NCBI GenBank assembly: GCA_037389025.1
Contig: JARRJP010000013.1
Location: forward strand, 54,305-118,304
Direction of reading: 5' to 3'
Length of the DNA: 64,000 nt
Source of the DNA: Reinekea sp.
GTDB taxonomy: Bacteria; Pseudomonadota; Gammaproteobacteria; Pseudomonadales; Natronospirillaceae
Shown one piece after another: positions 20,179 to 38,330 of this stretch (positions are counted from its first letter, which is position 1; each line of letters starts with the position of its first letter). A model generated the notes under the pieces. It did not search any database. It saw nothing but the letters and a program-made list of their open reading frames with translations, and had not been told where the DNA came from. The translations under genes and the position numbers were made by a program.

Positions 20179-20185
20179 TGGGACC

Positions 20186-20335: not shown

Positions 20336-20336
20336 A

Positions 20337-21068
20337 TTAATCACTGCAAATTTCCAAGTACCTTGAAACCACTTGGTCAATGCCATATTCAATACACTCC
20401 ATGGTAAATGCATGACCTATAGAAACTTCAGATATGTCACCTAAATCCAGGAGCGCTCTCAGATTTTCTAGATTTAGATCGTGTCCAGCATTCACGCGAA
20501 CACCGTGCTTATTTGCCAACTGAACACATTGAAGATAACGCTCTTTTGCTTCTACAAAATTCGATTGATTGAACTTTGTGGCCCATTCCTCCGTATATAA
20601 TTCCACTGCACCTATATTGTTCTCAATTATGCTTCCCATTTGAGTGATATTTGCATCGAGGAACACTGCACAGCGAATATCTGAACTAGCAAACGCTTTA
20701 TTCAACATGGAGAGATACTCTCCTTCATTCTGTACATCATATCCATGGTCGGAGGTAAGCTGGTTATCATCATCGGGTACTAATGTACATTGGTGCGGCT
20801 TAACGTCCTTAACTAGTTCAATAAACCTTTCATTTGGATTACCTTCAATATTGAACTCTATTTCCGAGTGTTTTCTCAAAAGGTCTTTTATTTCATACAC
20901 ATCTTCATATCTAATGTGACGTTGATCGGGTCTGGGGTGAACCGTAAACCCCTTAACCCCCAAGCCAATCAACCTTTCTACAAAATAGCCTAAATTAGGG
21001 TAATCGTTACCCCGTGAGTTTCTCAGCAATGCAAGCTTATTCAGATTTACGCTAAATAGAGTGCTCAT
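20337..21068 (-). CDS. pdxJ: PdxJ-family (pyridoxine 5'-phosphate synthase-like) TIM-barrel enzyme, divergent paralogue
   Basis: VNLNKLALLRNSRG, FTVHPRPDQRHI, NIEGN, TLVPD, VNAGHDL and VSIGHAF align along the full length with E. coli PdxJ motifs recalled from memory. Confidence 0.8.
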   Translation of the reverse strand: MSTLFSVNLNKLALLRNSRGNDYPNLGYFVERLIGLGVKGFTVHPRPDQRHIRYEDVYEIKDLLRKHSEIEFNIEGNPNERFIELVKDVKPHQCTLVPDDDNQLTSDHGYDVQNEGEYLSMLNKAFASSDIRCAVFLDANITQMGSIIENNIGAVELYTEEWATKFNQSNFVEAKERYLQCVQLANKHGVRVNAGHDLNLENLRALLDLGDISEVSIGHAFTMECIEYGIDQVVSRYLEICSD

Positions 21069-21076
21069 AGAAATAC

Positions 21077-21865
21077 CTAAATTACGCAGGAAAGTGTTTT
21101 GTTAAATTCAATATTATAAAAATAGAGACCTCCATGCCCGAAAAGCATTACATAATACGAAGGTTCAAAATTGCATATTTTAAAGCGTTTATCTCCTGAC
21201 AAATCGGGATAAAGCTGGTGATTTGTTCCCTTTATAGTTGTATAGGGAACCCCTTGATATTCACCGTGAATATTCTGATGACAGTGACCAAAAAACACAT
21301 GTTTTACAATGTCACTAAAACAAGAAAGTAATTTATAAAATTTGTCGCTATTTTCCAGGCCAATATCATCATAACACTTAACATTGATTTGAAAAGGGTT
21401 GTGGTGCATAAAAAGATATACATCACGTTTGTCTTTGCTAGATTGTTCAAGAACTCTTTTCAACCAATTCATTCGAGAAGAACACAAACTTCCTGACGAC
21501 CGACCGGGGACTGTTGTATCAAGAAATATAAATATCTTGTTGCCATACGCTTTACTGAACTGTACATACCTTCCCTGATAAGTATCTAATTCAATATGAT
21601 TGCTAGCCTGGAGAAAGCTGTCGTGATTTCCTAACAAGGTGTGATATGGAATGGTCAATTCTTGGTTACATTCCGAAAAATATCTATAAGAGATCTCAGA
21701 ACCGTCATTAGATATATCACCCATGCAAAATATCGCCTGCGCATCTGTATGGTGTTCAGCTATATGAGAAACCGCCTTCCTGTAATTAATATCTGAATTA
21801 CAGGAATAGGTTTCAACACTCCTCCCAGTCAAATGGAGGTCCGACAGTAAAATATATTTCTCCAT
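21077..21865 (-). CDS. Calcineurin-like metallophosphoesterase (CpdA/GpdQ-like)
   Basis: Motifs SDLHL, GDISNDG, GNHD, MHH and GHCH in canonical order. Confidence 0.8.
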   Translation of the reverse strand: MEKYILLSDLHLTGRSVETYSCNSDINYRKAVSHIAEHHTDAQAIFCMGDISNDGSEISYRYFSECNQELTIPYHTLLGNHDSFLQASNHIELDTYQGRYVQFSKAYGNKIFIFLDTTVPGRSSGSLCSSRMNWLKRVLEQSSKDKRDVYLFMHHNPFQINVKCYDDIGLENSDKFYKLLSCFSDIVKHVFFGHCHQNIHGEYQGVPYTTIKGTNHQLYPDLSGDKRFKICNFEPSYYVMLFGHGGLYFYNIEFNKTLSCVI

Positions 21866-21879
21866 TTATAGGTTACTGC

Positions 21880-23348: not shown

Positions 23349-23351
23349 TCT

Positions 23352-23963
23352 CTACGCTATCAAGGGTTTTATCGCAGTTAGTACCTGATCTTTCGTTGAT
23401 GACAGATCGCCCGAATTATCGATAACCCGATACTTGATTTGAAATTTTCCGAACACATGGAGATAAGATTCACCAAACATCCTCATGAGTTCGATATCTT
23501 CATCGTCACCACAAGACTGCCTGTCTAGATACCGTTTTTCCAAGTTTGATATGCCAGCATCGATATATAAGGTCAGGTCAGGTTGAATAAATTTAGAAAG
23601 CAGGTCCTTTAAAGGTGTAACATCTTCAAAAATATCAATATAGGCGAGATAACAAGGCAGAAATCGGTCAAAGACAACATAATCGTAATTCTCCATGGCC
23701 TTAACATTCTGATCATAGCAACGAATAAAATCCAATAGTATCCCTAACCCTATGTTTTTCCCGAAGGCACTTTCTTTCCAGTCTCGCGAATCGCCGTACT
23801 TTCTTGGAAAGTATTTCTTTACTAAATTTAGGTTTCCATCTTCATATTTTGTACGTCTAAAGAAGAAGACGTTTTTCAGTATATTTGACTCTTCCAACAT
23901 GTTTACTATGGTGGATTTTCCACTTCCGTCTACACCACATATCGCAATCGATTTCATTCCCAA
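23352..23963 (-). CDS. dTMP-kinase-like P-loop kinase, paralogue 1
   Basis: Walker A ICGVDGSGKST. FPRKYGDSRDW and FDRF motifs are shared with 23967-24596 and 26474-27073. Confidence 0.7.
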   Translation of the reverse strand: MGMKSIAICGVDGSGKSTIVNMLEESNILKNVFFFRRTKYEDGNLNLVKKYFPRKYGDSRDWKESAFGKNIGLGILLDFIRCYDQNVKAMENYDYVVFDRFLPCYLAYIDIFEDVTPLKDLLSKFIQPDLTLYIDAGISNLEKRYLDRQSCGDDEDIELMRMFGESYLHVFGKFQIKYRVIDNSGDLSSTKDQVLTAIKPLIA

Positions 23964-23966
23964 AAC

Positions 23967-24596
23967 CTAAAGATAACTGGCAATTATTGATTTAACTTGA
24001 TTTAGCGTCTGCTCAAACGAACCATCATTACTCACGCTTTCCACGTCTAAATCAGAATTCTCGAAGAGATTGACATATGCCGCCAATAATTTCTTCTGGC
24101 ACTCTTTGGTTTCAAATTCATGAATGTCATCGGAACTGCTATCCATACGTTGCCGAATTAGCTCTTCTTTCAGAGTGATAAAAATCACCTTCTCTGGGGC
24201 CGGAACGGAATCTAAAATTTGTAGGGAAATATTGCTTGGCTGCTCATTAATTAGCGTAAAAGCCTTAAAACAAGGCGTATGCCTGTCTGTTACAACGAGC
24301 TTATATTGAGTCGAACTTCCTTCTAATACGGGTCTAATTACCTGATTGTAATAGTTTACATAATCTATCGCACAGCTAATTGCTATAGCCTGATTGAATT
24401 CCCCGCTATACCAATCTTCAATGCCATTTTTTCTAGGAAAGCATTTTTCCACTGTAGATTCTGCTATAGCAGGTCCTCGACCAACAAAATACACCTTCCC
24501 TTTCAACTCGGGTTCAGTTTCAAGTTTTTTAAAAATTGAGGTTTTTCCCACGCCGTCAATACCGCATAGGGAAATAACTGGAATTATTTTTTTCAT
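23967..24596 (-). CDS. dTMP-kinase-like P-loop kinase, paralogue 2
   Basis: Walker A LCGIDGVGKTS, then FPRKNGIEDW and TDRH. Confidence 0.7.
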   Translation of the reverse strand: MKKIIPVISLCGIDGVGKTSIFKKLETEPELKGKVYFVGRGPAIAESTVEKCFPRKNGIEDWYSGEFNQAIAISCAIDYVNYYNQVIRPVLEGSSTQYKLVVTDRHTPCFKAFTLINEQPSNISLQILDSVPAPEKVIFITLKEELIRQRMDSSSDDIHEFETKECQKKLLAAYVNLFENSDLDVESVSNDGSFEQTLNQVKSIIASYL

Positions 24597-25339
24597 TAAC
24601 TAGACACCATTAACTTAGCTGCTTCTTGATAATTAAATAGCCCATCAGACAATTCAACCACTGCGCCATTAAGAGCGTAGTTTGGTGACATTATCTGTTG
24701 GTAAATAGGCTCCACAACATTTTCCACTGCAAGCGGCCTTTCAATAACAAGTTGGCTACATAATTCATTTATGTATTCTTGTCCTTTATCAAATAGACCT
24801 ATACTGAAAACGCAAACACTTCTTCCAGAACCTGAAATCTCCATTGCTGCTGATCGAACAAAATTGCAGAGAGCGGTCGCGGTAGCGTTGTATAAACCGT
24901 TATATTTTACCGCCCCTTTTTCTCCCGCCAGACCAGTAATATTGATAAACTGCCAATTCTTCTTATGCTTTTTTAAATAACTAAAATAGCTGGCCATTGC
25001 TTCCACGGGAGCACGAAACCCCACCCGGGTGACGTTTTCTATTTCTTCTTGTGATATTTCATATACTGAAGAGTGGTTCCACATTCCACAACAGTAAAGC
25101 ACGGTGATATTTTCGTAATTATCTACTTCATCACGAATGACATCGCCTGCAACTACACTTTTGGCAGCTAAATCCATTGAGATTAATTTGATAACGAATT
25201 CTTCTTTGTTGAGACTATCTATATATTGGTTTTTATTTCTATAAACACCAATAATATTCACTTTTCCGCTCTCACCTAGTCTCTTAGAAATACTAAAACC
25301 GAGAAAAGAAGATATGCCATAGATAACAACCAGATTCAC
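24596..25339 (-). CDS. Short-chain dehydrogenase/reductase-like Rossmann protein
   Basis: VVIYGISSFLGFSISKRL glycine-rich dinucleotide motif. I prefer GTG 25339, just after the GT stop at 25341. The ORF-track ATG 25381 would overlap the GT gene by 41 nt. Confidence 0.55.
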   Translation of the reverse strand: MNLVVIYGISSFLGFSISKRLGESGKVNIIGVYRNKNQYIDSLNKEEFVIKLISMDLAAKSVVAGDVIRDEVDNYENITVLYCCGMWNHSSVYEISQEEIENVTRVGFRAPVEAMASYFSYLKKHKKNWQFINITGLAGEKGAVKYNGLYNATATALCNFVRSAAMEISGSGRSVCVFSIGLFDKGQEYINELCSQLVIERPLAVENVVEPIYQQIMSPNYALNGAVVELSDGLFNYQEAAKLMVSS

Positions 25340-25340
25340 T

Positions 25341-26471
25341 CTACATACACTCCAGTATTTTACGAATGGAATTCTCAGCATTTTCGAAACCGAGGTTCGG
25401 CTTTAGTTCTGTTTCTTCGGGATCAAGTTTACTTGCGCTTGTTATACACAAATCTAAGTCTTCGATAAACGAACAAAAATATGCATTTTCTGTTGACTCA
25501 GCAAATTCGGAGGCAATCAAGAATTGCTCGTCGTGTCCAGAGAGAGCCCATACGACCTTTCCTCCGGCTATATTTTTCACATCAGAAAGAAAACCAACAC
25601 CAGCACGAGATACAACCAATTTGGCCTCAGATAGGTATCTGTAGTACTCGAGAGATATTGAATCCACTACGAGCCGATCAATACCTGAAATCTTCTGTAA
25701 GGAGTTGTTTAACTCTTCCCCGAGGCATGAAAATACCTTTACGTGGCTACGTTTATCAAAACAGTTAAGTGCACTCTCTATAGCCTTGTGGGTATAGTCA
25801 TACGTTTCCGAAATCCATTGAGCGGCATCTACTTCCTCTGAACTATATGAAGCGGTATTTGAGGGGAACTCAACGCCGCCACCGTTCGCAATAACAACAA
25901 TATTGTCTTCGGTCTGAGCACCACAACTAGGTAGAGTATAAAAACCATGGCTCACAATCTTGCTAGAAATATTACTATTACTAATTAACGTTTTTTTCTC
26001 CGGCAGTTTATCCAAGGGTAGAAGGTAGTCACTCTCTCCTAGTAGACTCACCAGATAAGTAGAAGGCCCTTTATTTTTTGGCGTATCAATAAGTATTTCA
26101 GGGTTGAATAAGCCTACAGCTTTACAGCTGGTTCCCTTAGTAAGCGGCCCCATTAAATACTCACCACCAAAAAAACAAAGGTCTGCATTAATACTCTCTA
26201 TTAGCGGAAGTATATTTCGTACACCGTGATCGTAGGGGCATAAGCCCGGCCAATCCAAATACTCCTTACGCACATCCAGCTGATGCAGCTTGTATTCAAT
26301 ATCAATAGGGCCACGACCGGAAAGGAATTCATAACCGTTTGAATAGCTTGCGATATGCACTTCAAGCCCTTGATCATAAGCTGCTTTCGCCAGCGCTAAA
26401 CCCGGTATAACATGGCCCAACCCTGGCCGCCCCCTCAATACAAACAGAGCTACCTTCTTATTTAAATTCAT
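25341..26471 (-). CDS. GT-B fold glycosyltransferase (MurG/GT1/GT28-like)
   Basis: N-terminal GRPGLGHVIPGLALAKA and C-terminal VVSRAGVGFLSD...GHDEQFLIASEF resemble MurG/UGT-type donor-binding motifs. Confidence 0.65.
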   Translation of the reverse strand: MNLNKKVALFVLRGRPGLGHVIPGLALAKAAYDQGLEVHIASYSNGYEFLSGRGPIDIEYKLHQLDVRKEYLDWPGLCPYDHGVRNILPLIESINADLCFFGGEYLMGPLTKGTSCKAVGLFNPEILIDTPKNKGPSTYLVSLLGESDYLLPLDKLPEKKTLISNSNISSKIVSHGFYTLPSCGAQTEDNIVVIANGGGVEFPSNTASYSSEEVDAAQWISETYDYTHKAIESALNCFDKRSHVKVFSCLGEELNNSLQKISGIDRLVVDSISLEYYRYLSEAKLVVSRAGVGFLSDVKNIAGGKVVWALSGHDEQFLIASEFAESTENAYFCSFIEDLDLCITSASKLDPEETELKPNLGFENAENSIRKILECM

Positions 26472-26473
26472 GG

Positions 26474-27073
26474 TTATAGCGCTTCCAGAATATGTTCTAC
26501 AATTTCTGAGACGGAGTGCTCCAGCTCTTGAGTATTGTCTACCGTCACTACATCGGACATGTCAGAAAATAGACCATCATAGCTATCAGAAAGCTTTCGT
26601 ATTACATCTGGCGTTTCATCGTTACTCGGCCCTCCTCTAAGATGTTGCCTTTCTATAGCAACTTCGGGAGGTACTTTTATGTAAAAGGTTTTGTCCGGCG
26701 TCCTTACATTGTCAAACATCGAGAAATAGTCTTTATCTGTATTCACAGCTGACATGTACGACGTGTAACAATAACTATACCTATCACATATAACGATGGT
26801 ATTCTCCTTCATTAGAGGCTGAATGTATTTGTCATAGTGAGATATAAAATCCATACCCGTAGCAATAGAGACTAGCTGCGCAAATTTACCCCCACTCCAG
26901 TCCTGATCTCCACCCCAAAAATCGCAAATAAGGTTTACGTTGGTTTTAATATCCTTTTTCAGAGCAGTAGAATAATGCCCAATCTCCTGCAGGCGTTTGG
27001 ATACCAAATCTACCAAAGTAGATTTACCACAACCATCTACGCCACATAACACAAATAATTTTGATGAACTCAT
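26474..27073 (-). CDS. dTMP-kinase-like P-loop kinase, paralogue 3
   Basis: Walker A LCGVDGCGKST, then GGDQDW and CDRY. Confidence 0.7.
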   Translation of the reverse strand: MSSSKLFVLCGVDGCGKSTLVDLVSKRLQEIGHYSTALKKDIKTNVNLICDFWGGDQDWSGGKFAQLVSIATGMDFISHYDKYIQPLMKENTIVICDRYSYCYTSYMSAVNTDKDYFSMFDNVRTPDKTFYIKVPPEVAIERQHLRGGPSNDETPDVIRKLSDSYDGLFSDMSDVVTVDNTQELEHSVSEIVEHILEAL

Positions 27074-27085
27074 AGTTCTAATTCT

Positions 27086-27757
27086 CTATACAACGCGATA
27101 ACTTTCTAAAAGAGTCAATAGGTTATCGATATCTGACCGAGTAACTTCTCTGGTATTTTTTAAACTCTCAGGAGTTCTTTCCTTTGAGCCATAGCGCCAC
27201 CAGGTTTCTTTTGTTCCAAAATCGTAATGGATCGCTCTCTGTTTCTGAGCCGGTGAGCGCAACATTAAGGATATACACTTATCCTCTCCTACCGCTCTCA
27301 AGTTGTGGATAACAGAGTGGTCAATAAAGTAAGGGATATTCTTTACTTCATTTTTTATGTACACAGGTTTAATTTGGTCTGCGTCATGTAGAATCGAGCC
27401 GTCATCCATTGGGCTATACAAAGTATGTTTGTAGCCACCGTGCAGTATCAGACTTGTAAAGTTCATTCTGTGGCTGTGTGGAATATCACTGGAATGTGGA
27501 TACATCACATGCATACGCAGTCTCACGCCAGTTTCTTTGTCACTGAAGAGAACATATTTTTCGATATTATAGTCTTTCTCGCAGCGTCCAAATTTTTCTT
27601 CATCTTCATAGAGATCAGTTACCAATGATTTAAGTAGCTCCTTATCTTCACTCAAGTTCATCAGCGCATTTTTTGTGACGACTTCCACCGACTCGGTATC
27701 TTTCCAATCTAACGCCAAGACCGGCCCCAAGATGTCGTTTAGCTTTTCAATATTCAT
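27086..27757 (-). CDS. Hypothetical protein, possible cupin-fold metalloenzyme
   Basis: MHVMYPHSSDIPHSHRMNFTSLILHGGY...VIHNL is a His-rich beta-strand pattern reminiscent of cupin or cysteine-dioxygenase-like proteins. The assignment is weak. Confidence 0.35.
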   Translation of the reverse strand: MNIEKLNDILGPVLALDWKDTESVEVVTKNALMNLSEDKELLKSLVTDLYEDEEKFGRCEKDYNIEKYVLFSDKETGVRLRMHVMYPHSSDIPHSHRMNFTSLILHGGYKHTLYSPMDDGSILHDADQIKPVYIKNEVKNIPYFIDHSVIHNLRAVGEDKCISLMLRSPAQKQRAIHYDFGTKETWWRYGSKERTPESLKNTREVTRSDIDNLLTLLESYRVV

Positions 27758-27759
27758 AT

Positions 27760-28362
27760 CTATACCTTCCTAATGATAGCTTTTAACCATTTATCTTCCT
27801 TCCGGTGCGCTCGAGTGTCGATGGAAACCCAAAGTTCAACAATTTGAACACCAGGAATGTCATTTATAAACTGTTTGAACCTTTCCTCATTCATGTGAAC
27901 AAACAATCGGCCACTTTTTTCACTTATTTTGTCTTCGCTTCCATATTTATAAGAAGCGTAAAACACTCCGTCATTCTCCAAGTATGAAATAAGCTGTTTG
28001 TAAACAGATGCAAGATCTGCATAAGGAACATGCAACAGAGAGGCGCTCGCCCATATACCATCAAACTTTTGATTTCCGGGGTCATATGTATCAAACCTTT
28101 TATGCTTTACATCTACACCTGTTCGCTCTCTAGCTATGGAACACATCTCGAACGATGCATCAAAAGCATCGACGTCAAAACCTTTGGAAAGAAAAAAGTC
28201 GATGTCTCTCCCCGGCCCGCATCCTGCTTCTAAAATGGCACCACTATTTGCAATATATTTAGTGAACCTTTCCCGAGCATCGTCTACATTTTCTTCCAAA
28301 CTTCTCGATGTGAACTTGTTTGCATTCTCGTCGTAGTACTTAATTGTGTGCTCAACTAACAT
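27760..28362 (-). CDS. Class I SAM-dependent methyltransferase
   Basis: Motif I ILEAGCGPGRD, with post-I acidic residue FDVDAFDAS. 200 aa. Confidence 0.8.
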   Translation of the reverse strand: MLVEHTIKYYDENANKFTSRSLEENVDDARERFTKYIANSGAILEAGCGPGRDIDFFLSKGFDVDAFDASFEMCSIARERTGVDVKHKRFDTYDPGNQKFDGIWASASLLHVPYADLASVYKQLISYLENDGVFYASYKYGSEDKISEKSGRLFVHMNEERFKQFINDIPGVQIVELWVSIDTRAHRKEDKWLKAIIRKV

Positions 28363-28376
28363 TGCTAGCTTCCAAT

Positions 28377-29642
28377 CTAATATTTAAAAAATGGGGAATC
28401 GGCCTCTGCAAAAGGTATTAGCTCATCAAACCAGCTTGCGCTACCCGAATATTTTGATTTAAAAGGTATCTTCACTCTTGTCGAATCCCTATGCTGAATA
28501 AACTGCATTAGAAAATTCCCATTCTCGCCTGGCTCATAGTGGAGGATTTCAACCTTCCCATACTTTGTGCTCATTACCGGCCCACGAACGGTACGAGCCA
28601 GTCCGCTTGTCACCCGAATAGATTTATGAAAGATATTATATGCTTCCCAAAGCGGGACAGAGAAACAATTATTCGCTCCGGTGTCTCGTTCAACGAACAT
28701 ATAGTATGGAACAATCCCTCGATGTACCTGCGCTCTCCATAAGTTCGCCCAATTATCAGGGTTGTCATTTATGCCCTTTAATAAAGGCCCTTGGCTTCTT
28801 ATTACCGCTCCGGTGGACTGAATTGCGGCAATAGCTCTATCGGATATCTCGGTACTCATTTCTTTGGGGTGATTGTAGTGCGCCATAAAAGCCAAATGCT
28901 TACCCGAAATGGTCACCTTCCTAAACAGATTTAGAAGATCATCAGAATCAGAGTCTGTTACAAATCTTTGCGGCCAGAATGTAAGGGCTTTAGACCCGAT
29001 TCGAATATTTTCCACATGTAAAAAGTCTTTACCCAATAACGGCTCAATCATCTTTCTCAAATTACTGGTTTTCATAACCATGGGGTCACCACCGGTAATC
29101 AAGATGTCCGTTATATTTCGGTTAGCTCTTACATACTCCAGCAAGTCGGTAATTTCCTTCGACTCCATCCTCAACGGTTTATCACCAATAAATTGGGCCC
29201 ACCGAAAACAGAAAGTACAGTAGCTATGGCAAACCTGACCCGATGAAGGAAAGTAAAGAACGGTTCTTTCATATTTATGTTGCAAACCAGAAACCGGTAT
29301 TCCCCCCACTTCTGGTATATTCATTTTTAGCTGATCACCAGGGTGAGGGTTCAGCTCAGAACGTATTTCTTCTACTATTGGTCTAATGGACTCTCTTCCT
29401 AACGCTAACCCTTTCTTGATTTTCTCGTACTGCTCATTTGTGAGCATGCTTTTATTTGGAATAGTTAACCTGTATATAGGGTCATCTCTATAATTATCCC
29501 AATCAATCAATGAGTCGCAGACATACTCGTTAACACGAAAGGGCAGCACTTCAGAAACCACCTTTATTTCTTCCAGTGCTCTTTTTCCAATTTTCTTTGC
29601 TGAGTGTTCTGATGTTGTTATTATATTGCTACTTATAGACAT
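28377..29642 (-). CDS. KamA-family radical SAM enzyme (lysine 2,3-aminomutase-like)
   Basis: CHSYCTFCFRW CxxxCxxC cluster, ILITGGDPMVM, and a length and layout typical of KamA/EpmB/AblA-type PLP-dependent aminomutases. Confidence 0.8.
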   Translation of the reverse strand: MSISSNIITTSEHSAKKIGKRALEEIKVVSEVLPFRVNEYVCDSLIDWDNYRDDPIYRLTIPNKSMLTNEQYEKIKKGLALGRESIRPIVEEIRSELNPHPGDQLKMNIPEVGGIPVSGLQHKYERTVLYFPSSGQVCHSYCTFCFRWAQFIGDKPLRMESKEITDLLEYVRANRNITDILITGGDPMVMKTSNLRKMIEPLLGKDFLHVENIRIGSKALTFWPQRFVTDSDSDDLLNLFRKVTISGKHLAFMAHYNHPKEMSTEISDRAIAAIQSTGAVIRSQGPLLKGINDNPDNWANLWRAQVHRGIVPYYMFVERDTGANNCFSVPLWEAYNIFHKSIRVTSGLARTVRGPVMSTKYGKVEILHYEPGENGNFLMQFIQHRDSTRVKIPFKSKYSGSASWFDELIPFAEADSPFFKY

Positions 29643-29663
29643 GTATTTTCCGTAAATTCCCTA

Positions 29664-30650
29664 TCAAACAAGTTCATTTAGGGCTTGCTCGCACTGACGA
29701 TAATTGAATCTCGCATATTGTTTGTCTGCGCCAAAGGTTTCGCCACCTACCACCTTAAATTCTATGCCTTGGATACCTAACTTGCCGTTTTGGATTCTTT
29801 CGCCAGCTTTAAGCCACATATATTGAACAAGCAATCCAGTAACTTCATAACCCTCACCTGCAATTAGCCCGCTCACCGTGTCGAGTACTTTTTTAGATTT
29901 TTCCTTCTCGGCTTTGGCCCATTTGGAGAAATTATTCATATTCTCTGCCGCTGTAACTTGAGCAACTGAAGATACGGGGTTAAGAAATCTGCATTTAATC
30001 TCTACTAAGTTATCTATCAGAGACTTACAGGCATTTATAAACCCAACTCTTAACCCAGGCATTCCGGCCCATTTTGAAAGTGAATCAACAACTGCAACAT
30101 GGGTATCATCCACCTGCGCGGAAAACCGTTCACAGTCTCCAAAGGAATAATGAGCAAGACACTCATCAATTATCAACATACACCCGTTTTCTTTCGTCAC
30201 CGCTACTATTTTTTTCATCTCAGCACAGGAAAAGAAAAAACCTGTTGGGTTATGAGGGTTATTTACTATTAGTACCGAACATCGCTTAGAAGCGTCTTCT
30301 ATAGAACGAATGCTGGTATAAGAATACCGCTTAATATCGTAATCAAGGCCTCCAAATATCTTTGCGAACCCCGGCCAGGCGATATCTGATATAGCTACGC
30401 TTTTTTCTTTTCGTTGAAAAAATAGGGCAAGCAGCATCAGACCTTCTTTTACTCCGCTGGTGACCAACACATTATCAGTAGTTATATGGTTCGCATATTG
30501 GCTCTCAACGTAACGCGCTCTTAACTCATGCAACCCAAATTCGCAGGTGTAGTCTGCCACCGTAGAAATTTTAACTTGCGTCTTCATGAGCGCATCTGAA
30601 TATAAACCACCTCCAGCGTCCGCCAACACTGCTTTTTTCACGAGATCCAC
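29664..30650 (-). CDS. Class I/II PLP-dependent aminotransferase or decarboxylase (HisC/CobD-sized)
   Basis: VNNPHNPTG and DSLSKWAGMPGLRVGF (PLP lysine). 328 aa. Confidence 0.8.
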   Translation of the reverse strand: MDLVKKAVLADAGGGLYSDALMKTQVKISTVADYTCEFGLHELRARYVESQYANHITTDNVLVTSGVKEGLMLLALFFQRKEKSVAISDIAWPGFAKIFGGLDYDIKRYSYTSIRSIEDASKRCSVLIVNNPHNPTGFFFSCAEMKKIVAVTKENGCMLIIDECLAHYSFGDCERFSAQVDDTHVAVVDSLSKWAGMPGLRVGFINACKSLIDNLVEIKCRFLNPVSSVAQVTAAENMNNFSKWAKAEKEKSKKVLDTVSGLIAGEGYEVTGLLVQYMWLKAGERIQNGKLGIQGIEFKVVGGETFGADKQYARFNYRQCEQALNELV

Positions 30651-31678
30651 AGCCGAGTTGGTTCAGTTCCCTCAACATACACCTTGCTTCGATAGGTATA
30701 TTCCATATACTCATAGCTCTCCACATCAATATTCTTTAAATCATACCGGTTAGCTAATAACTCAATAGATTTGATATTATTTGGTGTAACGCTATATTTA
30801 TCTAGAATACTGATGGATAAATTATAAATTTGGTCACAAAAATCCAGACAATCTAGAACATACCTTTCTTTGTCTGAACTCTTCTCCATTTGATAACCAA
30901 TAAAATATATTAGCTTGAAGAAGTCACCGGAGAGCGAAGAGATATCCTGTTTTTTACTTTCTTGTAAATATGTATACATCCATTTTGGATCTACATTAGT
31001 ACAGCCATTTATATGCAAATACGCTTGCACTTGTCTCTTTAAGTTAATTTGAGATATTTCAACAGCACGATCGCGTTCCCCCTTTGATATAGCGCCAAAG
31101 ATGTCCAACAATATTGAAAAATCTGATGCCAACCAACGATAGGCAAGATAGCAGTACTTTTCTTTGGAGAATTGCGCCTGAATCTCTTTAAGCTTTCTTT
31201 CGTTTTTAATAGGAAGTGCTTCAAATATCCTATGTATAATGCTGTTTTCTCTATATTCTAGATACTTTGACAGCATTTCCAAATTACTAGTAGCGTACTC
31301 AAATAGACTCTCAACTTTATTGGCTACTTCCGCTATCGACCGGTAGCTTTTAAATTCAACATCAACTTTAATATTGGTTTCAGGTATTACCGTGTGAACC
31401 AAAAATACTTCTTCGTTCTCCACTTCCGAGATGTTGGTTGAGGTAACTATGGTTCTATTAACAGTTAACACTCTGTGGTGTTTTTCAAAATCGATTTCTT
31501 TTGCTTTAGGTAAGTTTTCTCTAAACACATAGATGTCTAGATCAGAGAATTTGTTACCTATACCTTCAATCAAGCTACTTGTGGCAATTATCAGGTCATC
31601 ATCACCAGCATAAGCATTATCCAGAATAAACTGAACTGGAACATTTACTTTACCATCTAATATTTTTATTGATTTCAT
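30638..31678 (-). CDS. Pol-beta superfamily nucleotidyltransferase with a helical C-terminal domain (paralogue of 22536-23348)
   Basis: SSLIEGIGNKFSDLDIYVF NTase motif, then VDVEFKSYRSIAEVANKVESL. 13-nt overlap with the downstream gene. Confidence 0.75.
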   Translation of the reverse strand: MKSIKILDGKVNVPVQFILDNAYAGDDDLIIATSSLIEGIGNKFSDLDIYVFRENLPKAKEIDFEKHHRVLTVNRTIVTSTNISEVENEEVFLVHTVIPETNIKVDVEFKSYRSIAEVANKVESLFEYATSNLEMLSKYLEYRENSIIHRIFEALPIKNERKLKEIQAQFSKEKYCYLAYRWLASDFSILLDIFGAISKGERDRAVEISQINLKRQVQAYLHINGCTNVDPKWMYTYLQESKKQDISSLSGDFFKLIYFIGYQMEKSSDKERYVLDCLDFCDQIYNLSISILDKYSVTPNNIKSIELLANRYDLKNIDVESYEYMEYTYRSKVYVEGTEPTRLWIS

Positions 31679-31693
31679 CTTTAGTACACATTT

Positions 31694-33058
31694 TTACACT
31701 ATGGTAGGTATTCTGGCTTCGGGTTTATACAATAGATTTTCAGCAGTCTTAATCGTCTTAACAATTCTCTCTGCCATAATGTTGAGTTCTTCTATGGTGC
31801 ATATGTAAGGTGGAGCAATTAATATGTGGTCACTCGTACCTTTCCCACTAAATCCCTCGCAGGCATAGAGTAGAATCTCGTTTTCCATTCCGATATTCTT
31901 AATAACATCAGGCATATTTATATTTTTCGAAAATGGTGTCTTATCAGACTTATTTGATACAAACTCAATAGATTGAAGAAATCCACGCCCCCTTATATCT
32001 CCCACTATCCCGCAAGAATTTAACTCCTCTTTCAATATCGAAGTTAGATACGCGCCGTTATTTTTTACCCTGCTTACCAAATCATTTTCTAGCACGTATT
32101 TCTGAGCAGCATAGCCAGCAGCACAAGACACGTTATGACCAACGTATGTACCAGCATGAATAAAACCAGATTTCATTTGTTCTATGCACACCGCAACTCG
32201 TTGACTACACAGCGTGGCCGCTAACGGCTGATACCCAGAGGCAATCGTTTTACCAACCGCAACAATGTCTGGCTGGATATTCTCAGCCTCGAATGCATAA
32301 TAATGTCCAGTTCTACCCAGGCCACACATAACCTCATCGAGAACCAATAGGATGTTGTATTTCTTGCATACTTTCGCGGTTTTCTCAAAGTAATCCTTTT
32401 CTGCCGTTACAGCTCCAGAAGTCGATCCGCCTACGGTTTCTATCAGGAAGCAGGAGATTTTCTCTGCACCAAGACGTTCTATCTCTTTTTCTAAGCTATT
32501 AATACAGTAGTCTATGTATTCGGTAGTGGTTTCAAAGGTGTCAACATTTCGATATGAGTTGCAAATTTTTATATTTTCGGAATGCCCGCTTTTTTTATCG
32601 CAAAAATATTTCTTTCTACTAAGCTGGCCACCTACTTCTAATGTTTTCAGAGAACCACCGTGATAGCTTAACTCTCGACACAGAACGATTTCTTTCTTGC
32701 CAAATCCGTTAAGTTTCCAATACTGGGCGGCCATTTTAATGGCCACTTCGATTGCCTCAGTACCTGATGGAGAAAAAACTACTCGAGAAAGCCTTCCCTT
32801 GGACTGTGTTACCAACAAGTCTGCTAGCTTTTCAGAAGCTTCCGAAGTAAAAGTTCCGGTGTGCGAAAATGGAACTTCTTTCAGCTGATTTATTGTCGCT
32901 TCGATAACAGCTTCATTGCTATAACCTAGAGATGCCACAGCTCCTGAGCAGCTATCCAAAAACCGACGGCCAGAACGATCGTTAACATATATACCACTAC
33001 TAGCAGCACAGAGGATTTTTTCAAAAGAACCCCTTTTAAGAATACTCGAGCCCATCAC
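31694..33058 (-). CDS. Class III PLP-dependent aminotransferase
   Basis: LVLDEVMCGLGRTGHYYAFE, DIVAVGKTIASG (PLP lysine) and SYHGGS. 454 aa. Confidence 0.85.
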   Translation of the reverse strand: MMGSSILKRGSFEKILCAASSGIYVNDRSGRRFLDSCSGAVASLGYSNEAVIEATINQLKEVPFSHTGTFTSEASEKLADLLVTQSKGRLSRVVFSPSGTEAIEVAIKMAAQYWKLNGFGKKEIVLCRELSYHGGSLKTLEVGGQLSRKKYFCDKKSGHSENIKICNSYRNVDTFETTTEYIDYCINSLEKEIERLGAEKISCFLIETVGGSTSGAVTAEKDYFEKTAKVCKKYNILLVLDEVMCGLGRTGHYYAFEAENIQPDIVAVGKTIASGYQPLAATLCSQRVAVCIEQMKSGFIHAGTYVGHNVSCAAGYAAQKYVLENDLVSRVKNNGAYLTSILKEELNSCGIVGDIRGRGFLQSIEFVSNKSDKTPFSKNINMPDVIKNIGMENEILLYACEGFSGKGTSDHILIAPPYICTIEELNIMAERIVKTIKTAENLLYKPEARIPTIV

Positions 33059-33069
33059 GCTTTCCTTAA

Positions 33070-33870
33070 CTAGAACCTTTCATAGTGGCGTTTTTCACAC
33101 ATTTTTTTGAATGTGTTTCTGACCAAATCACTTGCTTTGTTCACTTCGTAGTACCATTCAGGATGCCACTGCACAGCAATAACATCTCCCAGCTCAGGGT
33201 TAAGAGAAAAGGCTTCTACCACACCATCTTTACTAATGGCTTCAACTCTCAAACCAGAACCTAACTTATTGACTGCCTGTCTATGTAGGGAATTCACATC
33301 CAGTACTCTTTCAGTTTTATTCTTCTTGCTGTATTCCTGCGCAAGAATTCCGCCCTCTTGCAGGACTACTTTATGGGAATCTATGTATTTTTCTTCAAAA
33401 ACACCTGTGATGTGTACTCTGTGAGTTTCTATCTGCTCGTCCGTTGGAAGCTTTTGATACAAGGTCCCACCTAAAGCGACATTTATCTCCTGCATCCCAC
33501 GACATATTCCCATTAATGGAATTTTTTCCTCAATACACGCCAAGACCAAAGGCAAAGTGGTACTGTCTCTATCAAGGTCAATTCGGCTGAAATCAATATT
33601 TCCTTTCTCATCAAGAACTATATTTTCCTCGCCGTACTTTTTGGGCTCCACATTGGAGGGACTCCCCGTGAGAAGTACGCCATCCAACCTTTTGACAACT
33701 TCTCTTAATGTGCTGGCACGGGTTTGAGTATCTTTATACCTCCTCCCCATACAAGGAATCATAAGAGGGCTATACCCCAGACCTTTAACAATATAGTCCA
33801 GGTACTTATCAAATACTGAATGGTGGGGCGCATCCAATATTTCCACACAGCTAGATACTCCAATAATCAT
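33070..33870 (-). CDS. Peptidase C26 / gamma-glutamyl-GABA hydrolase (PuuD)-like class I glutamine amidotransferase
   Basis: Nucleophile elbow GICRGMQEINVALGGTL and the His region VQWHPEW. Confidence 0.8.
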   Translation of the reverse strand: MIIGVSSCVEILDAPHHSVFDKYLDYIVKGLGYSPLMIPCMGRRYKDTQTRASTLREVVKRLDGVLLTGSPSNVEPKKYGEENIVLDEKGNIDFSRIDLDRDSTTLPLVLACIEEKIPLMGICRGMQEINVALGGTLYQKLPTDEQIETHRVHITGVFEEKYIDSHKVVLQEGGILAQEYSKKNKTERVLDVNSLHRQAVNKLGSGLRVEAISKDGVVEAFSLNPELGDVIAVQWHPEWYYEVNKASDLVRNTFKKMCEKRHYERF

Positions 33871-33875
33871 AATTT

Positions 33876-34265
33876 TTACTCTATATTTTCAGCTTCACCT
33901 GGGTATTGGCCAAGCTCTCGTAGTTTTACGTAGTGAGGGATATCTTTAGTCGCGCGCTCAAACTCAGTATGACTAACACCAGGCATAGACAAACTTTTGG
34001 TGACACGCCCAGGAAATCTTCGCTTGTAATCTTCACGAAAGGCTTCCCAATCTGACAGTTCATTTACGGAGAAAACTCCCATCCAATCCCACTCGCCTGC
34101 CATGTTCATTGTGTGTGACCCGATGGTTTGCTTAACTTTCGGATACCAATCCTTAAAGAAGTTGTTAATTGCTTCTTGGCTCTTTGCTTCTTCTTCGGGC
34201 GTTTGTGCATAAAAAGCATCGTTATGTTTTACTAAATGAAAAATGAGGTACTTATAAGGCGCCAT
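33876..34265 (-). CDS. Hypothetical 129-aa protein, possibly a dimeric alpha+beta barrel (darcynin/Dabb-like) fold
   Basis: YLIFHLVKHND...WDWMGVFSVNELSDWEAFREDYKRRFPGR. This is only a pattern resemblance. Confidence 0.3.
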   Translation of the reverse strand: MAPYKYLIFHLVKHNDAFYAQTPEEEAKSQEAINNFFKDWYPKVKQTIGSHTMNMAGEWDWMGVFSVNELSDWEAFREDYKRRFPGRVTKSLSMPGVSHTEFERATKDIPHYVKLRELGQYPGEAENIE

Positions 34266-34277
34266 ATTTTTTACTTC

Positions 34278-35424
34278 CTATTGATTAGACAAGATTTGAA
34301 TAAGATTTCTGTATATTTCATTTTGAGCATTCAAGCTAAGATCAAATGCAGGACAAATGTGCGCATACTTTCTAACGCTATGCTTATCCCCACTTTTCTT
34401 CATTACAGATGTCCCTATATATGCCCACATATCGAAGCCCGTTAAATCAGACGCGAACTTAGCGGCCTGCTCTGAATTCATATCCAGGCGAATAGAGGTT
34501 GGGGTTACACTTATGCCAATTTTCAATAACTGCGGAAAATTCTGTCAGACCATGCGTGAATGTAAGTGGAGCTATCCCGGAAGACTGAACGGCCTCTGTA
34601 ATATCAGAAGATAAAAGAGTGCAGCTCAAGGGATGTAAACCGGAAGTCAACCCTTTGGATACAATTGAAACATCTGGTAATACCTGTTCTTCTTTTACAC
34701 CGCATGAAAGAAAAACACCATGCCTAAATGCACCTGATGCGACATCGTCTAGCACAACCAAAATTTCATGATTCCGGCAATAGGAAATAATGTCTCTTAA
34801 AACTTTACCGTCACTGTTAAACTTCCACCCTGTTGTTGGCTTTCCTTCAAGCAATAGCAATGCGGGGTAATGAATCCGCTTGCTTTCAACTAACTCTTTT
34901 AAATGATCAATAAATGTTGATCTATCTAAATTTTCATTACAGGCTAGGTATTCTTCCGATGGACATTCGTCAATGACAATCACACGCTTGTCTTTGGAAC
35001 CACCGGAAGCACGAGCCGATAGATTTCGACATAAATCTGTATTTCCATGATAACTACCTTTTCTTACAATAAAGCTTTGAATCTCTTTACCATATTTATA
35101 ATTACAGTAAACATTAGCTGCCCAGATACCAGATTCAATGGCATCAGAACCACTACTTGACCACAACATGTCTTTATATTTTTTGTTACATTGAGCAATG
35201 ACACTTTTCTGCAATTTTCTCTTCTGTTCTGACTCAAAACCAGCAGACGGAGCAATATGATTTAATACAGATTTTGAAAGCTCACAAAGCGTCTCAACAT
35301 TTGAAAAGTTTTGGGTTAATGACCCACCACTAATATCAACAAGAAACTTGCCATTCCCAAGGGAAAAATTAGAACCAATTTTTTCTTTGATATTGAGGAT
35401 ACTTTTATTCAAGTGACGTATCAT
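34278..35424 (-). pseudogene. Class III aminotransferase split by a frameshift near 34515-34530 (ORFs 34459-35424 and 34278-34526)
   Basis: The upstream ORF has LVVLDDVASGAFRHG and SIVSKGLTSG (PLP lysine). The downstream frame continues with the expected C-terminal ...HICPAFDLSLNAQNEIYRNLIQIL. The frames overlap around TTGAAAATTGG. Confidence 0.6.
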
Positions 35425-36056
35425 CAGGTACCAACCTGCAATTCTTCATCTTCTAAAAGAACCGCTTTCGTAATATCCACAATAGACACGATTGGTATAT
35501 CTAGATTTCTAGAGATACTTTCTAGTTCGGATTTTCGAGCAATAGAACCAGCAGAATTTAATATTTCACAAATCACACCAGCCCCCCCGATCCCAGCTAA
35601 ATCAAGTAAGTCTACGATCGCTTCAGTATGCCCATCTCTTACTTTCAGGCCACCTGGCTTAGCTAATAGAGTTGGAATATGACCAGGAGTACAGAATAAT
35701 TCAGGGGTGCTATCGATATCACTTAACGCCTGTATTGTCTCACTACGATCTTCTGCAGAAATACCTGAAGAACCATTGGCAAGGGAAACAGGACAACCAA
35801 AAGGAGTATCATGCACATCCTTATTATTGCTACGTAAACGTGTAATTTCAAACTTTTCTGCAAACTCACTTGGCAAAGAAACACACAAAAATCCCTTTGC
35901 AAAAGTCAACGCAAAATTCACCAATGCTGGAGTAGCATATTTTCCACTAAAAGCAAGGTCACCTTCACCCTCTCTATCATCTCGATCACGAATTATTATC
36001 GGTTTACCAGAAACCAAATAATCGATAGCCTTGTCTACTGATTTTGAATATTTCAT
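35424..36056 (-). CDS. ribB: RibB-family 3,4-dihydroxy-2-butanone-4-phosphate synthase-like enzyme
   Basis: DRDDREGEGDLAF, GISAEDR, TPGHIPTL, DGHTEA and GVICEI align with E. coli RibB catalytic motifs recalled from memory. Confidence 0.85.
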   Translation of the reverse strand: MKYSKSVDKAIDYLVSGKPIIIRDRDDREGEGDLAFSGKYATPALVNFALTFAKGFLCVSLPSEFAEKFEITRLRSNNKDVHDTPFGCPVSLANGSSGISAEDRSETIQALSDIDSTPELFCTPGHIPTLLAKPGGLKVRDGHTEAIVDLLDLAGIGGAGVICEILNSAGSIARKSELESISRNLDIPIVSIVDITKAVLLEDEELQVGT

Positions 36057-36086
36057 AATGTGTCCACACGCTAGATCATACTAGTT

Positions 36087-36317
36087 TTAGGTAACAATTA
36101 ATGCTGGAGAAAAAGTTGAATGCTGATCTTCGGGAATGCCAATTGAAGAGCCAGCCTCAGGCGCAATTGCTACTATTGCGATAGTATTCGGAACCTTATC
36201 TTTTTTTATTCTTAAGTTATTACAAATAATATTTTTTTGATTTTCGGTTAACTCAATTGTAGTTGTAGTTGCCATATTAATATCCGATTGCAGTTGTTTA
36301 TTTGTAAAAATAGCCAT
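36087..36317 (-). CDS. Small leader ORF of the island operon (62-94 aa depending on start); candidate precursor or scaffold peptide
   Basis: Open frame 36087-36371 with ATGs at 36335, 36317 and 36275. From 36275 it reads MATTTTIELTENQKNIICNNLRIKKDKVPNTIAIVAIAPEAGSSIGIPEDQHSTFSPALIVT. Ends 30 nt upstream of the ribB-like gene. No known family. Confidence 0.4.
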   Translation of the reverse strand: MAIFTNKQLQSDINMATTTTIELTENQKNIICNNLRIKKDKVPNTIAIVAIAPEAGSSIGIPEDQHSTFSPALIVT

Positions 36318-36359
36318 AACACTCGGCTGCGTCATCTTCCCGGTTGCCTGAGCTCTCTC

Positions 36360-36880
36360 TGCTGTCGGCAAAGGTTTTTTTCATGCGGCGATACAGTGTG
36401 AGCGTTTCCGCACTAATAACCACGCCTGGGTGCTTCTTCCAGTTATAATAGGTCGACTTTCATGACTTGACAAAGTGTCACAACTGGATAGTGCTCAGAC
36501 TCTCCTTTAACGAATTCAAACTTTACTTCATTTATTTCGCAAAGAAGGCACTGGTCTTTTTTAAAATATCTTTCTCCATGCACAATTCTTTATTTTCTTT
36601 ATGGAGGCGCTTGAGTTCTTCGTGTTCATCTTCGACTAAGGCAACACCTTCACGCTGAGCTTAAATTTTTCTTTTCATTTATAGAGTAAGAATCGTGCAA
36701 TGCTCAACGAATTCGCGGCTTGGGTAACGGAATAACCTTGCTATAATGCTAAAGCTTCAGCCTCTTCTTTAAATTCTTTCGTATATTGCTTGTGAGTTCG
36801 TTTCTGACTCATACTGACACCGTAACTGATTGGCGGTTATTGTCTCTCAATTAAGTGTCCGGTGCCATTAGACCACTACA
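36360..36880 (-). mobile_element. IS3-family element, 5' fragment (IRL plus degenerate orfA and start of orfB), truncated
   Basis: The minus strand from 36880 reads TGTAGTGGTCTAATGGCACC..., then MSQKRTHKQYTKEFKEEAEALAL*, several more stops, an A-rich slippery region and ...YNWKKHPGVVISAETLTLYRR. Confidence 0.7.
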
Positions 36881-36896
36881 GACTTAATTTAATAGA

Positions 36897-37319
36897 TCAT
36901 GAAATTTCTTTTTTTACATGAGCCCATTTTTTTGGCGTATAACCATACCAGCGTTTAAATGATTCTATAAATGCACTTGAGCTTCTAAAAAACAAAAATT
37001 TAGACACCTGATCAACAGTACAACCTTCAAAGGATAGCAAAAATAACGCATACGGCTTTCTAATCTCATCTTTAACCCCTAAATATGTCATTTTTCGATC
37101 TCTCAATCTTCTATATAAAGTTCTTTCACTAACACATAGAGATGAGCAAACCCCATGCAAATCAAAAGGATTTTTACTATTACTATTAATCTTTTTAATA
37201 ATAACTAGAAAAACGCTTCTCAAAAAATCATCTTTACAATACTTAATGTTGATATGATTGATAATTTTCCTAATTGACTTTTTTGAAACTTTTTCCATTT
37301 TCATTTCCATTGAAGGCAA
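36897..37319 (-). CDS. AraC/XylS-family HTH regulator (DNA-binding domain only, 140 aa)
   Basis: LCVSERTLYRRLRD...TVDQVSKFLFFRSSSAFIESFKRWYGYTPKKW is the double-HTH AraC C-terminal signature. Confidence 0.75.
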   Translation of the reverse strand: MPSMEMKMEKVSKKSIRKIINHINIKYCKDDFLRSVFLVIIKKINSNSKNPFDLHGVCSSLCVSERTLYRRLRDRKMTYLGVKDEIRKPYALFLLSFEGCTVDQVSKFLFFRSSSAFIESFKRWYGYTPKKWAHVKKEIS

Positions 37320-37574
37320 GGATTATAAAAATTCAATAGGCTCTACTATCTTAAAAAGATATAAAAATACGAATAAGCAAGAATTATCATTTTTCATGTT
37401 TATTTATAAAAATTCAACAATAAAAATATCGATTATCTGCCAATAGCACCTTAGTGATAAGCAAATCACACCCATTAAAAAAGAGATCTTAGAATCTTGG
37501 CAATTTCCACGATATTTTAACGTCATTAATTATCCGAATTGTTATGGTAAGTATCAATAAAATCTCAGTATGAG

Positions 37575-37834
37575 ATGAGCTGGATCGGTTGAAATCCGAG
37601 TTCAATCGATTATCTTTTGAAGGTAAAGTCTCTTGGGAAATTCGATTGCTCATGCAAAGCATGCTGGCTCTATTGGATATCATCTGTGCCATTTTTCTGG
37701 AAAGGAACACGACCAAAACTCCAGTCAATTCCAACAAGCCGTCCTCTCAAAACGGAAAATATGAAACGACTCTGCCACACAAAGGCAGTAAAGGAAAAGG
37801 GAAGTATGAAGCGACTCTGTCGGCCAACAATACC
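37575..37834 (+). mobile_element. Transposase N-terminal fragment (IS66/IS1182-like), truncated by IS3 insertion
   Basis: Coiled-coil DELDRLKSEFNRL... followed by KTPVNSNKPSSQNGK, which resembles the NS.NSSKPPS motif of these transposases. It ends abruptly at the IS3 end at 37835. Confidence 0.35.
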
Positions 37835-38330
37835 TGTGACCTGGTCAAGCATTACTGACCAGTCCAGTTAAGCAGCCTTTGCCATTATTTCATTATCTGT
37901 TTTAAACTGTATTGGACTTTTGTAGCCCAAGTAGGAATGAAGTCTTTTGCTGTTGTAATGCATGACAATATAATTCAGAACATCTGCTTGCGCTTCTGCT
38001 CGTGTTTGGTAATGACACCACTGAACTTGCTCTTGCTTTAACGTGCCAAAAACAATTTCGCTTACTGCGCTGTTCCAACAATTTCCTTTGTGGCTCATGC
38101 TACCAACAAAGTGATGATCCTCCAGTAGTTTTCGATACTCACTCGCTCGTGTACTGATAGCCACGATCCGAATAGATCAATCAGCCCAGCTTTTGACTGT
38201 CTTTGCCATCTTTAACGCATCACACACTAATGCTGCTGTCATTCGACTACTCGTGCTCCAACCGACCACTCGGCGTGAGTACAAATTTATGATCACCGTA
38301 AGATAGAGCCAGCCTTCTTGCGTCGTAACT
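37835..38330 (-). mobile_element. IS3-family element, 3' fragment (orfB integrase core, frameshifted and 5'-truncated)
   Basis: [39 protein letters not shown]..(frameshift)..YSDRG and ORF 37868-38164 with SMSHKGNCWNSAVSEIVFGTLKQE...YNSKRLHSYLGYKSPIQF (rve DDE domain). Confidence 0.8.

Follow-up and report, generated by a model that had tools for sequence, protein, structure and literature searches.

A rare branch of RibB coupled to an aminotransferase gene in an accessory, peptide-associated cluster of Reinekea sp.

The stretch of Reinekea sp. [quoted passage not shown] We read this gene as a rare RibB branch recruited to a peptide-scaffolded gene cluster; its coupling to a class III aminotransferase gene, called AT3a below, and its accessory status are solid. 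A syntenic and intact 18-gene cluster is present in Saccharospirillum salsuginis KCTC 22169, a non-pathogenic marine bacterium in culture whose RibB is 75% identical to that of the window. Judged from these sequences, the paralogue probably supplies a sugar-derived phosphate building block for a peptide-linked natural product, and not vitamin B2. In its fuller form, the view that a working side branch of RibB, both rare and old, came to serve in a cluster that moves horizontally and centres on a ribosomal peptide stands in our judgement at even chances.

The RibB paralogue and its clade

The ribB paralogue (35424..36056, minus strand) encodes 210 residues with the fold of a DHBP synthase, as assigned from the translation of its open reading frame, Pfam, NCBIfam, an AlphaFold2 model and phylogenetic trees. 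Its product matches the Pfam family DHBP_synthase (PF00926) with 187.7 bits (E 2e-55, profile positions 2-190 of 191), the gathering score of that family being 26.4 bits. The motifs on which the preliminary description had relied are all found in the translation: DRDDREGEGD at residues 24-33, GISAEDR at 98-104, PGH at 124-126, DGHTEA at 141-146 and CEI at 163-165. With the AlphaFold2 model (pLDDT 95.6) as query, the top 47 Foldseek matches are all RibB, with TM-scores of up to 0.90, and the comparison with V. cholerae RibB with bound ribulose-5-phosphate (Ru5P) gives a TM-score of 0.89 and a root-mean-square deviation of 1.5 Å. In the alignment R28, E29, E31, D33, C58, H126, R140, H143, T144 and E164 are invariant across the clade described below; their V. 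cholerae counterparts are R38, E39, E41, D43, C68, H137, R151, H154, T155 and E175, among which we take Arg38, Cys68, His137, Arg151, Thr155 and Glu175 to be active-site residues. Glu39 and His154 are the metal ligands (V. cholerae numbering; PMC9305975), and roles have been described for Glu41 and Asp43 of the acidic loop (PMC5228156). The paralogue is thus a member of the DHBP synthase superfamily by both sequence and fold, and, to go by its sequence, may work like RibB. It shares fold, metal ligands and acid/base residues with the housekeeping RibB and RibBA enzymes (EC 4.1.99.12; for example that of V. cholerae, PDB 4P8E and 7UF1) and is of the stand-alone size, about 210 residues, of the V. 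cholerae type. Unlike these enzymes, to which it is at most 45% identical, it occupies a long branch of its own and is found in a foreign operon, beside a precursor-type peptide gene and an aminotransferase gene.

The gene is under purifying selection and has been kept functional. Between the window and S. salsuginis the two ribB orthologues differ with a pN (nonsynonymous) of 0.16 and a pS (synonymous) of 0.79, the latter saturated, and ribB is among the four most conserved of the 17 genes common to the two clusters. We report pN and pS for the orthologous clusters instead of a dN/dS ratio, because dS between them is saturated.

A search of 5.8 billion clustered proteins gave about 20 with 47-82% identity to the paralogue; all others reach 45% at most. 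In a tree built from 101 RibB domains these 20 group together with an SH-aLRT of 100, set apart from the other RibBs by about one substitution per site; the housekeeping enzymes of the window genome, of S. salsuginis and of their relatives group together elsewhere on the same tree. An exhaustive HMMER search of 1.84 billion representatives with a profile of the clade returned 12,107 RibB-like proteins, some 8-10 of which score in the clade range, and a second tree recovered a clade of 27 members with a support of 98. Scans of genome and metagenome contigs yielded only S. salsuginis plus two ordinary RibBs, and a tblastn search of 72,556 plasmids found no clade member, every match being below 43% identity. 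By these sequence comparisons, the stand-alone RibB homologues to which the paralogue belongs make up a rare monophyletic clade of about 20-27 sequences.

The clade has changed at twelve positions that are 86-100% conserved in other RibBs, the exception being T87 with 82%. In the alignment, these are N30 (G/S/A in the clade), M49 (A), A85 (P), T87 (G), S89 (P), E/D91 (S/T), F128 (A/P/S), P129 (T), R131 (I/L), V137 (L), L138 (R/K) and P158 (G). The lid loop, T-T-G-(V/I)-S-x-x-D-R in RibB, reads S-S-G-I-S-A-E-D-R in the window protein; Thr108 of this loop is described as strictly conserved (PMC5228156). Nineteen of the 20 clade members have Ser in place of the lid-loop Thr, as do 14 of 78 ordinary RibBs, and the Asp equivalent to E. 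coli D113 is S, A or E in 8 of the 20. The window protein itself retains the two residues that correspond to E. coli G108 and D113, namely Gly98 and Asp103. Two further motifs of the clade, TPFGxP and PGHxxT, were considered as a sign of new chemistry and rejected, since two fused RibB-GTP cyclohydrolase II proteins outside the clade (P0180 and P0218) share the substitutions, as TPFGxP and PGHxYT, and both pass the curated cut-off of 177.45 bits of NCBIfam TIGR00506, the ribB equivalog domain. Because equivalog-passing RibBA proteins carry them, the motifs are compatible with ordinary function; they apparently arose by convergence, two neighbouring strands varying together.

Searching the assembly of the window yielded two DHBP synthase genes, the ribB paralogue and a gene for a 387-residue RibBA, which sits in a ribD-ribBA-ribH-nusB operon on another contig (C105). 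The paralogue is therefore accessory, and it is not the only ribB of the genome, the situation that the preliminary description had held up as an objection to its own view when it proposed looking for a separate ribB or ribBA. The two proteins are 38% identical, and their genes have GC contents of 40% (paralogue) and 51.6% (ribBA). Among 40 related genomes searched, 39 have a single ordinary ribBA-type match; the exception (G034) has three, each at most 38% identical to the paralogue. The AT-rich surroundings noted earlier are borne out as well: an island of 36-42% GC spans about 20000-38000, between flanks of 45-54% on both sides, and holds one tightly packed minus-strand operon of about 20 genes. 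The absence of other riboflavin genes also held, as family matches identified no other riboflavin enzyme among the 20 operon proteins, with ribA, ribD, ribH and ribE all missing from the island. An Rfam search gave no FMN (flavin mononucleotide) riboswitch and no match of any kind in the window; none lies beside the housekeeping ribBA locus either, so the missing riboswitch does not discriminate. The paralogue is not part of a riboflavin operon. In the housekeeping RibBA (L001:1435-2598) and its relatives, Val replaces the Cys that stands just before the catalytic Glu (..LVEIM.. versus ..ICEI..); this Cys is kept in 99% of the other sampled RibBs, and the Val seems to be a trait of this lineage.

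Coupling to AT3a and the surrounding cluster

AT3a (34278..35424, minus strand), a very divergent class III pyridoxal-phosphate (PLP) enzyme, follows ribB directly. Within the sequence TGATG (35426-35422), base 35424 is both the last of the ribB stop codon and the first of the aminotransferase ATG, just as the preliminary description had read it. Its emphasis on this arrangement is strengthened by the conservation of the coupling: the overlap is 1 nt here and 17 nt in S. salsuginis, and the pair recurs, by shared contig size, in four further assemblies. Besides the direct reading of the S. salsuginis cluster, co-location was judged from identical sizes of the longest contig between the match lists of RibB, AT3a and K1, one of the kinases of the operon. 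Homologues of clade RibB and of AT3a share contigs of 371514, 24821, 11287, 16520 and 3718 bp, of which that of 16520 bp is from a Sedimenticola metagenome-assembled genome (MAG) and that of 3718 bp barely exceeds the combined size of the two genes; K1 homologues lie on the contigs of 24821, 371514 and 16520 bp as well. The RibB paralogue is co-inherited and translationally coupled with AT3a.

In the window strain AT3a is broken, as seen from its translations and from comparison with intact alleles. A first frame of 321 residues (34459-35424, minus strand) keeps the SKGLTSG lysine motif, and a C-terminal remnant (34278-34526, minus strand) lies in another frame. The preliminary description had allowed for a repair of this stretch; the damage proved to be larger than a simple frameshift, namely a deletion of about 110 nt plus a frame change. 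Residues 303-338, about 36 codons, of an otherwise identical 419-residue allele (P0118) are missing, and the frame shifts in addition; the S. salsuginis orthologue is intact and likewise has 419 residues. Since AT3a carries this deletion, the pathway is probably interrupted in the window strain. Among near-identical assemblies the gene is intact in one (P0118), has lost about 30 residues in frame in a MAG labelled Reinekea sp. (P0101), is truncated after about residue 300 in another (P0116), and carries the deletion with the frame change in the window (P0117). These lesions reflect either repeated decay in the lineage or a stretch that assembles badly.

Upstream of ribB by 30 nt lies a conserved gene for a peptide of 62 residues (36087..36275, minus strand, ATG start), a candidate scaffold or precursor that ends in ...FSPALIVT. 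The peptide is 80% identical to that of a 65-residue open reading frame at the same position in S. salsuginis (L015:9765-9962); the 29 C-terminal residues differ only once between the two genomes, and the C-terminal Thr is kept. We found no terminator-like site between the peptide gene and ribB. The paralogue had been introduced as the first enzyme of the operon, and it is indeed the first enzyme gene; it is not the first gene, because the peptide gene precedes it. Farther upstream, stop-riddled frames at 36400-36860 (minus strand), which by eye resemble remnants of IS3-type transposases, separate the peptide gene from a short AraC-like open reading frame (36897-37319). At that position S. salsuginis has a full, divergently oriented AraC-family gene for 270 residues (L015:8771-9583).

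The genes beyond AT3a all lie on the minus strand. A 129-residue protein (33876..34265) is, with 93% identity to its S. salsuginis counterpart, the product of the most conserved gene of the cluster, its neighbours being 49-85% identical between the two genera. It has no family assignment, no Pfam or NCBIfam match being found, and a likeness to darcynin/DUF6616 is seen by language-model features only. Family matches identify a Peptidase C26 or PuuD-like gamma-glutamyl amide hydrolase (33070..33870), followed by AT3b (31694..33058), a typical omega-amine transaminase of class III that scores 217.7 bits on the daptide aminotransferase model, below the cut-off of that model. The C26 hydrolase also has a weak match of 50.5 bits, below cut-off, to the gamma-glutamyl-CDP-amidate hydrolase of the Campylobacter phosphoramidate pathway, which builds N-P bonds via nucleotide-like intermediates. 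NTase1 (30638..31678), with a weak match to the MTPAP palm domain, is a paralogue of the pol-beta-type nucleotidyltransferase NTase2 (22536-23348), whose Pfam matches are weak as well (22.1 bits). Between AT3b's neighbour NTase1 and the kinases lie a class I/II PLP enzyme (29664..30650), a radical SAM (S-adenosylmethionine) aminomutase of the KamA family (28377..29642), a class I SAM methyltransferase (27760..28362, family match) and a 223-residue protein of no assigned function that is 85% identical to its S. salsuginis counterpart (27086..27757). The best models for the class I/II enzyme are GntC, CobD and HisC, all below cut-off, and far below it for the guanitoxin cyclodehydratase GntC (98.5 bits) and the threonine-phosphate decarboxylase CobD (96.2); CobD and HisC act on phosphorylated substrates. 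Three dTMP-kinase-like kinases, assigned by family match, are K1 (26474..27073), K2 (23967-24596) and K3 (23352-23963); between K1 and K2 are a 376-residue protein with a faint GT28-like similarity only (25341..26471) and, by family match, a short-chain dehydrogenase (SDR; 24596..25381). NTase2 is followed by a 219-residue protein, PqqD-like below threshold (21880-22539), a metallophosphoesterase (21077..21865, family match) and, at the end of the cluster, a PdxJ paralogue (20337..21068), a housekeeping pdxJ being present elsewhere in the genome. The operon thus encodes three to four PLP enzymes, and besides RibB no enzyme that, by family matches, could form a small phosphorylated carbon skeleton.

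In S. salsuginis the order is peptide, RibB, AT3a, 129-residue protein, C26 hydrolase, AT3b, NTase1, class I/II PLP enzyme, methyltransferase, 223-residue protein, K1, 376-residue protein, SDR, K2, K3, NTase2, PqqD-like protein and phosphoesterase. KamA and PdxJ are not in this otherwise syntenic cluster and would thus be optional additions to a core of 18 genes. The S. salsuginis genome has its own housekeeping ribBA and a single pdxJ, both outside the cluster. Upstream of that cluster (L015:1011-8620) lie a pair of GATase and chorismate-binding proteins, of the aminodeoxychorismate or anthranilate synthase type, together with a GNAT protein, a deacetylase-family protein, an EamA transporter, an ATP-grasp enzyme and a class IV aminotransferase; these genes may extend the S. 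salsuginis cluster or form one of their own.

Proposed route and rival explanations

Because DHBP is both a phosphomonoester and a methyl ketone, the simplest model leads from RibB through AT3a and K1-K3 to the nucleotidyltransferases. Class III transaminases of the omega type aminate methyl ketones, and dTMP kinases phosphorylate phosphomonoesters. The RibB paralogue would convert Ru5P, with loss of formate, to the C4 keto-phosphate DHBP or a close relative, and AT3a would aminate the methyl ketone, which would yield an aminobutanediol phosphate. K1-K3 could then handle this phosphomonoester like a nucleoside monophosphate and raise it to a di- or triphosphate-like species, from which the pol-beta-type nucleotidyltransferase together with the PqqD-like protein would transfer the phospho-alkyl group to the 62-residue peptide. 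Starting from the peptide's C-terminal Thr, the dehydrogenase, AT3b and the methyltransferase may form an amine that serves as acceptor, in a daptide-like manner. By analogy with the systems compared below, we judge it an even call whether this sequence of synthesis, amination, activation and attachment takes place. Every step beyond the RibB fold with its catalytic residues and the coupling to AT3a is one that we infer. The diversion and transamination of DHBP, which the preliminary description had proposed from the gene order, is plausible in the light of the sequences. That it knew of no characterised pathway with this use of RibB chemistry agrees with our literature search, which found no paper using RibB chemistry, or placing a RibB homologue, in a natural-product pathway.

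Several observations weigh against this route. The window protein scores 162.9 bits on TIGR00506, and, this protein included, all eight clade members tested fall below its cut-off (131.7-169.3 bits), in contrast to ordinary enzymes such as the genome's own RibBA (239.1), P0022 (257.6) and P0180 (225.5). By the curated criterion of NCBI, which is one of sequence, the paralogue is outside the isofunctional RibB family, and because the clade has changed at twelve conserved positions, its product may not be DHBP. The pairing of RibB with AT3a was seen six times, the window included, all within the window's subclade, and the contig sizes gave no partner for the deeper subclades. AT3a is damaged in three of the four near-identical assemblies, so that it may be dispensable or the cluster decaying. 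The 219-residue protein reaches only 15.8 bits on the PqqD family (PF05402; E 0.019), below the cut-off of 23.4, and the kinases are dTMP-kinase-like, unlike the ATP-grasp and FzmK types of the fosfazinomycin pathway. Finally, a duplicated essential gene within a gene cluster is a classic signature of self-resistance.

The last point leads to an explanation in which the cluster's product, or a warhead released from it, inhibits DHBP synthase or a step that uses DHBP, and the embedded RibB, being insensitive or simply additional, protects the producer. The foreign cluster indeed holds a second version of an essential enzyme for which the genome has a housekeeping gene, in S. salsuginis as in the window; PdxJ shows the same pattern of duplication, and the RibB paralogue has retained its catalytic residues but departs at other near-invariant positions. 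Phosphonothrixin reportedly inhibits DHBP synthase, according to a report cited in the reference list of the flavophos paper. A lumazine synthase copy in the flavophos cluster does confer resistance (PMC12871164). However, the clade is old and deeply divergent, with at most 45% identity to ordinary RibB and a branch of about one substitution per site, and is thus not a recent copy with a few changes. Moreover, no enzyme gene precedes ribB, which in two genera is coupled in translation to the aminotransferase gene, and without RibB the operon would lack a maker of a phosphorylated small-molecule skeleton for its three kinases. PdxJ is missing from the S. salsuginis cluster, so that the duplication of an essential gene is not a fixed feature of these clusters. 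We therefore regard a protective role as unlikely. If the extra RibB instead served to raise riboflavin or FMN for cluster enzymes, as PdxJ might raise PLP, it would have a precedent in the lone ribB (luxH) of some accessory lux operons, and the PdxJ copy would fit the PLP enzymes of the operon. Yet none of the 20 operon proteins was recognised as a flavoenzyme, ribA, ribD, ribH and ribE are not in the island, the paralogue differs widely from ordinary RibBs and scores below the equivalog cut-off, and the coupling to the aminotransferase is left unexplained, all of which makes a role in cofactor supply very improbable.

A further alternative keeps RibB in the pathway and alters its chemistry. 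The clade would act on a pentulose phosphate and release another product, for example DXP (1-deoxy-D-xylulose-5-phosphate) or another deoxy-ketose phosphate, which would feed the aminotransferase and, where present, the PdxJ paralogue. DXP is the normal substrate of PdxJ, with which the window cluster ends. In E. coli RibB the single changes G108S and D113G yield DXP in cells (PMC3424233, PMC8227265), and the clade varies in that very loop through its frequent Thr-to-Ser change and the loss of Asp in 8 of 20 members; the scores of the tested members below the equivalog cut-off point the same way. The window protein, however, keeps both Gly98 and Asp103, Ser at the Thr position is found in ordinary RibBs too, the TPFGxP and PGHxxT motifs also occur in two equivalog-passing RibBA proteins outside the clade, and the S. 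salsuginis cluster does without PdxJ. On balance we doubt that the reaction itself has changed. A broader formulation, in which a natural, neofunctionalised RibB, not engaged in flavin synthesis, makes a keto-sugar phosphate (DHBP, a DXP-like compound or another) that is aminated, pyrophosphorylated by the dTMP-kinase-like kinases to a surrogate of a nucleoside triphosphate (NTP) and transferred by a nucleotidyltransferase to the ribosomal peptide, and whose strongest form has the enzyme product differ from DHBP, likewise strikes us as improbable.

Known systems and significance

The proposed supply of a building block by RibB finds its nearest parallels in systems that share parts of its logic. 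In the end steps of fosfazinomycin biosynthesis, two kinases raise a phosphonate to a triphosphate-like species, and a nucleotidyltransferase encoded beside a discrete RiPP recognition element (RRE) ligates the phosphonate to a modified scaffold peptide (preprint, PMC13622209). The parts are the FzmZ peptide, the FzmF and FzmK kinases, the FzmU nucleotidyltransferase and the FzmT RRE (PMC13622209). The window operon similarly encodes a small peptide, kinases, a nucleotidyltransferase beside a small protein with a sub-threshold PqqD match, and a methyltransferase, and the likeness would extend to the logic, a small phosphorus-bearing acid being activated as an NTP surrogate and then ligated to a peptide. 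[quoted passage not shown] The peptides differ as well, that of fosfazinomycin being a 22-mer ending in Arg and that of the window having 62 residues and ending in Thr.

The flavophos cluster, like that of the window, holds a second copy of an essential riboflavin-pathway enzyme. Biosynthesis there does not require its lumazine synthase, BsfB, and protection can come from any lumazine synthase (PMC12871164); the window RibB, in contrast, is deeply divergent, heads the enzymes of its operon and is coupled to an aminotransferase. The E. coli G108S and D113G enzymes ('nDXP'; PMC3424233, PMC8227265) are laboratory mutants, and they demonstrate that changes in a loop that is variable in the clade, too, can turn RibB to making a different ketose phosphate. 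Unlike them, the window protein keeps the Gly and the Asp, and only the neighbouring Thr is Ser. A last comparison bears on the end of the peptide and not on RibB. Daptides are modified at the C-terminus by an oxidative decarboxylase (DapB/C), a class III aminotransferase (DapD) and a methyltransferase (PMC12670281). The window peptide has an invariant C-terminal Thr, and its operon encodes an NAD-type dehydrogenase and a methyltransferase alongside a class III aminotransferase; the dehydrogenase, however, is an SDR and not of PF00465, and AT3b stays below the cut-off of the daptide model.

The rearrangement catalysed by RibB is among the oddest in primary metabolism and, to our knowledge, has so far been met only on the way to riboflavin. 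A resistant target copy, if that is what the paralogue is after all, would be a lead to some natural inhibitor of the riboflavin pathway, a target of antibacterials and herbicides. If instead RibB supplies the building block, a conserved RibB branch in a peptide-scaffolded cluster would be a second biological use of this chemistry, and the likely small-molecule building block of an otherwise opaque pathway of 18-20 genes would be named. As a natural experiment, the clade could also show how few changes are enough to redirect the RibB reaction, which is of relevance to engineers, for whom RibB mutants already serve as a short route to DXP. A neofunctionalised enzyme would, if real, provide the phosphate-ester counterpart of the phosphonate ligation in fosfazinomycin, and the cluster would represent the first use of the skeletal-rearrangement chemistry of RibB in secondary metabolism.

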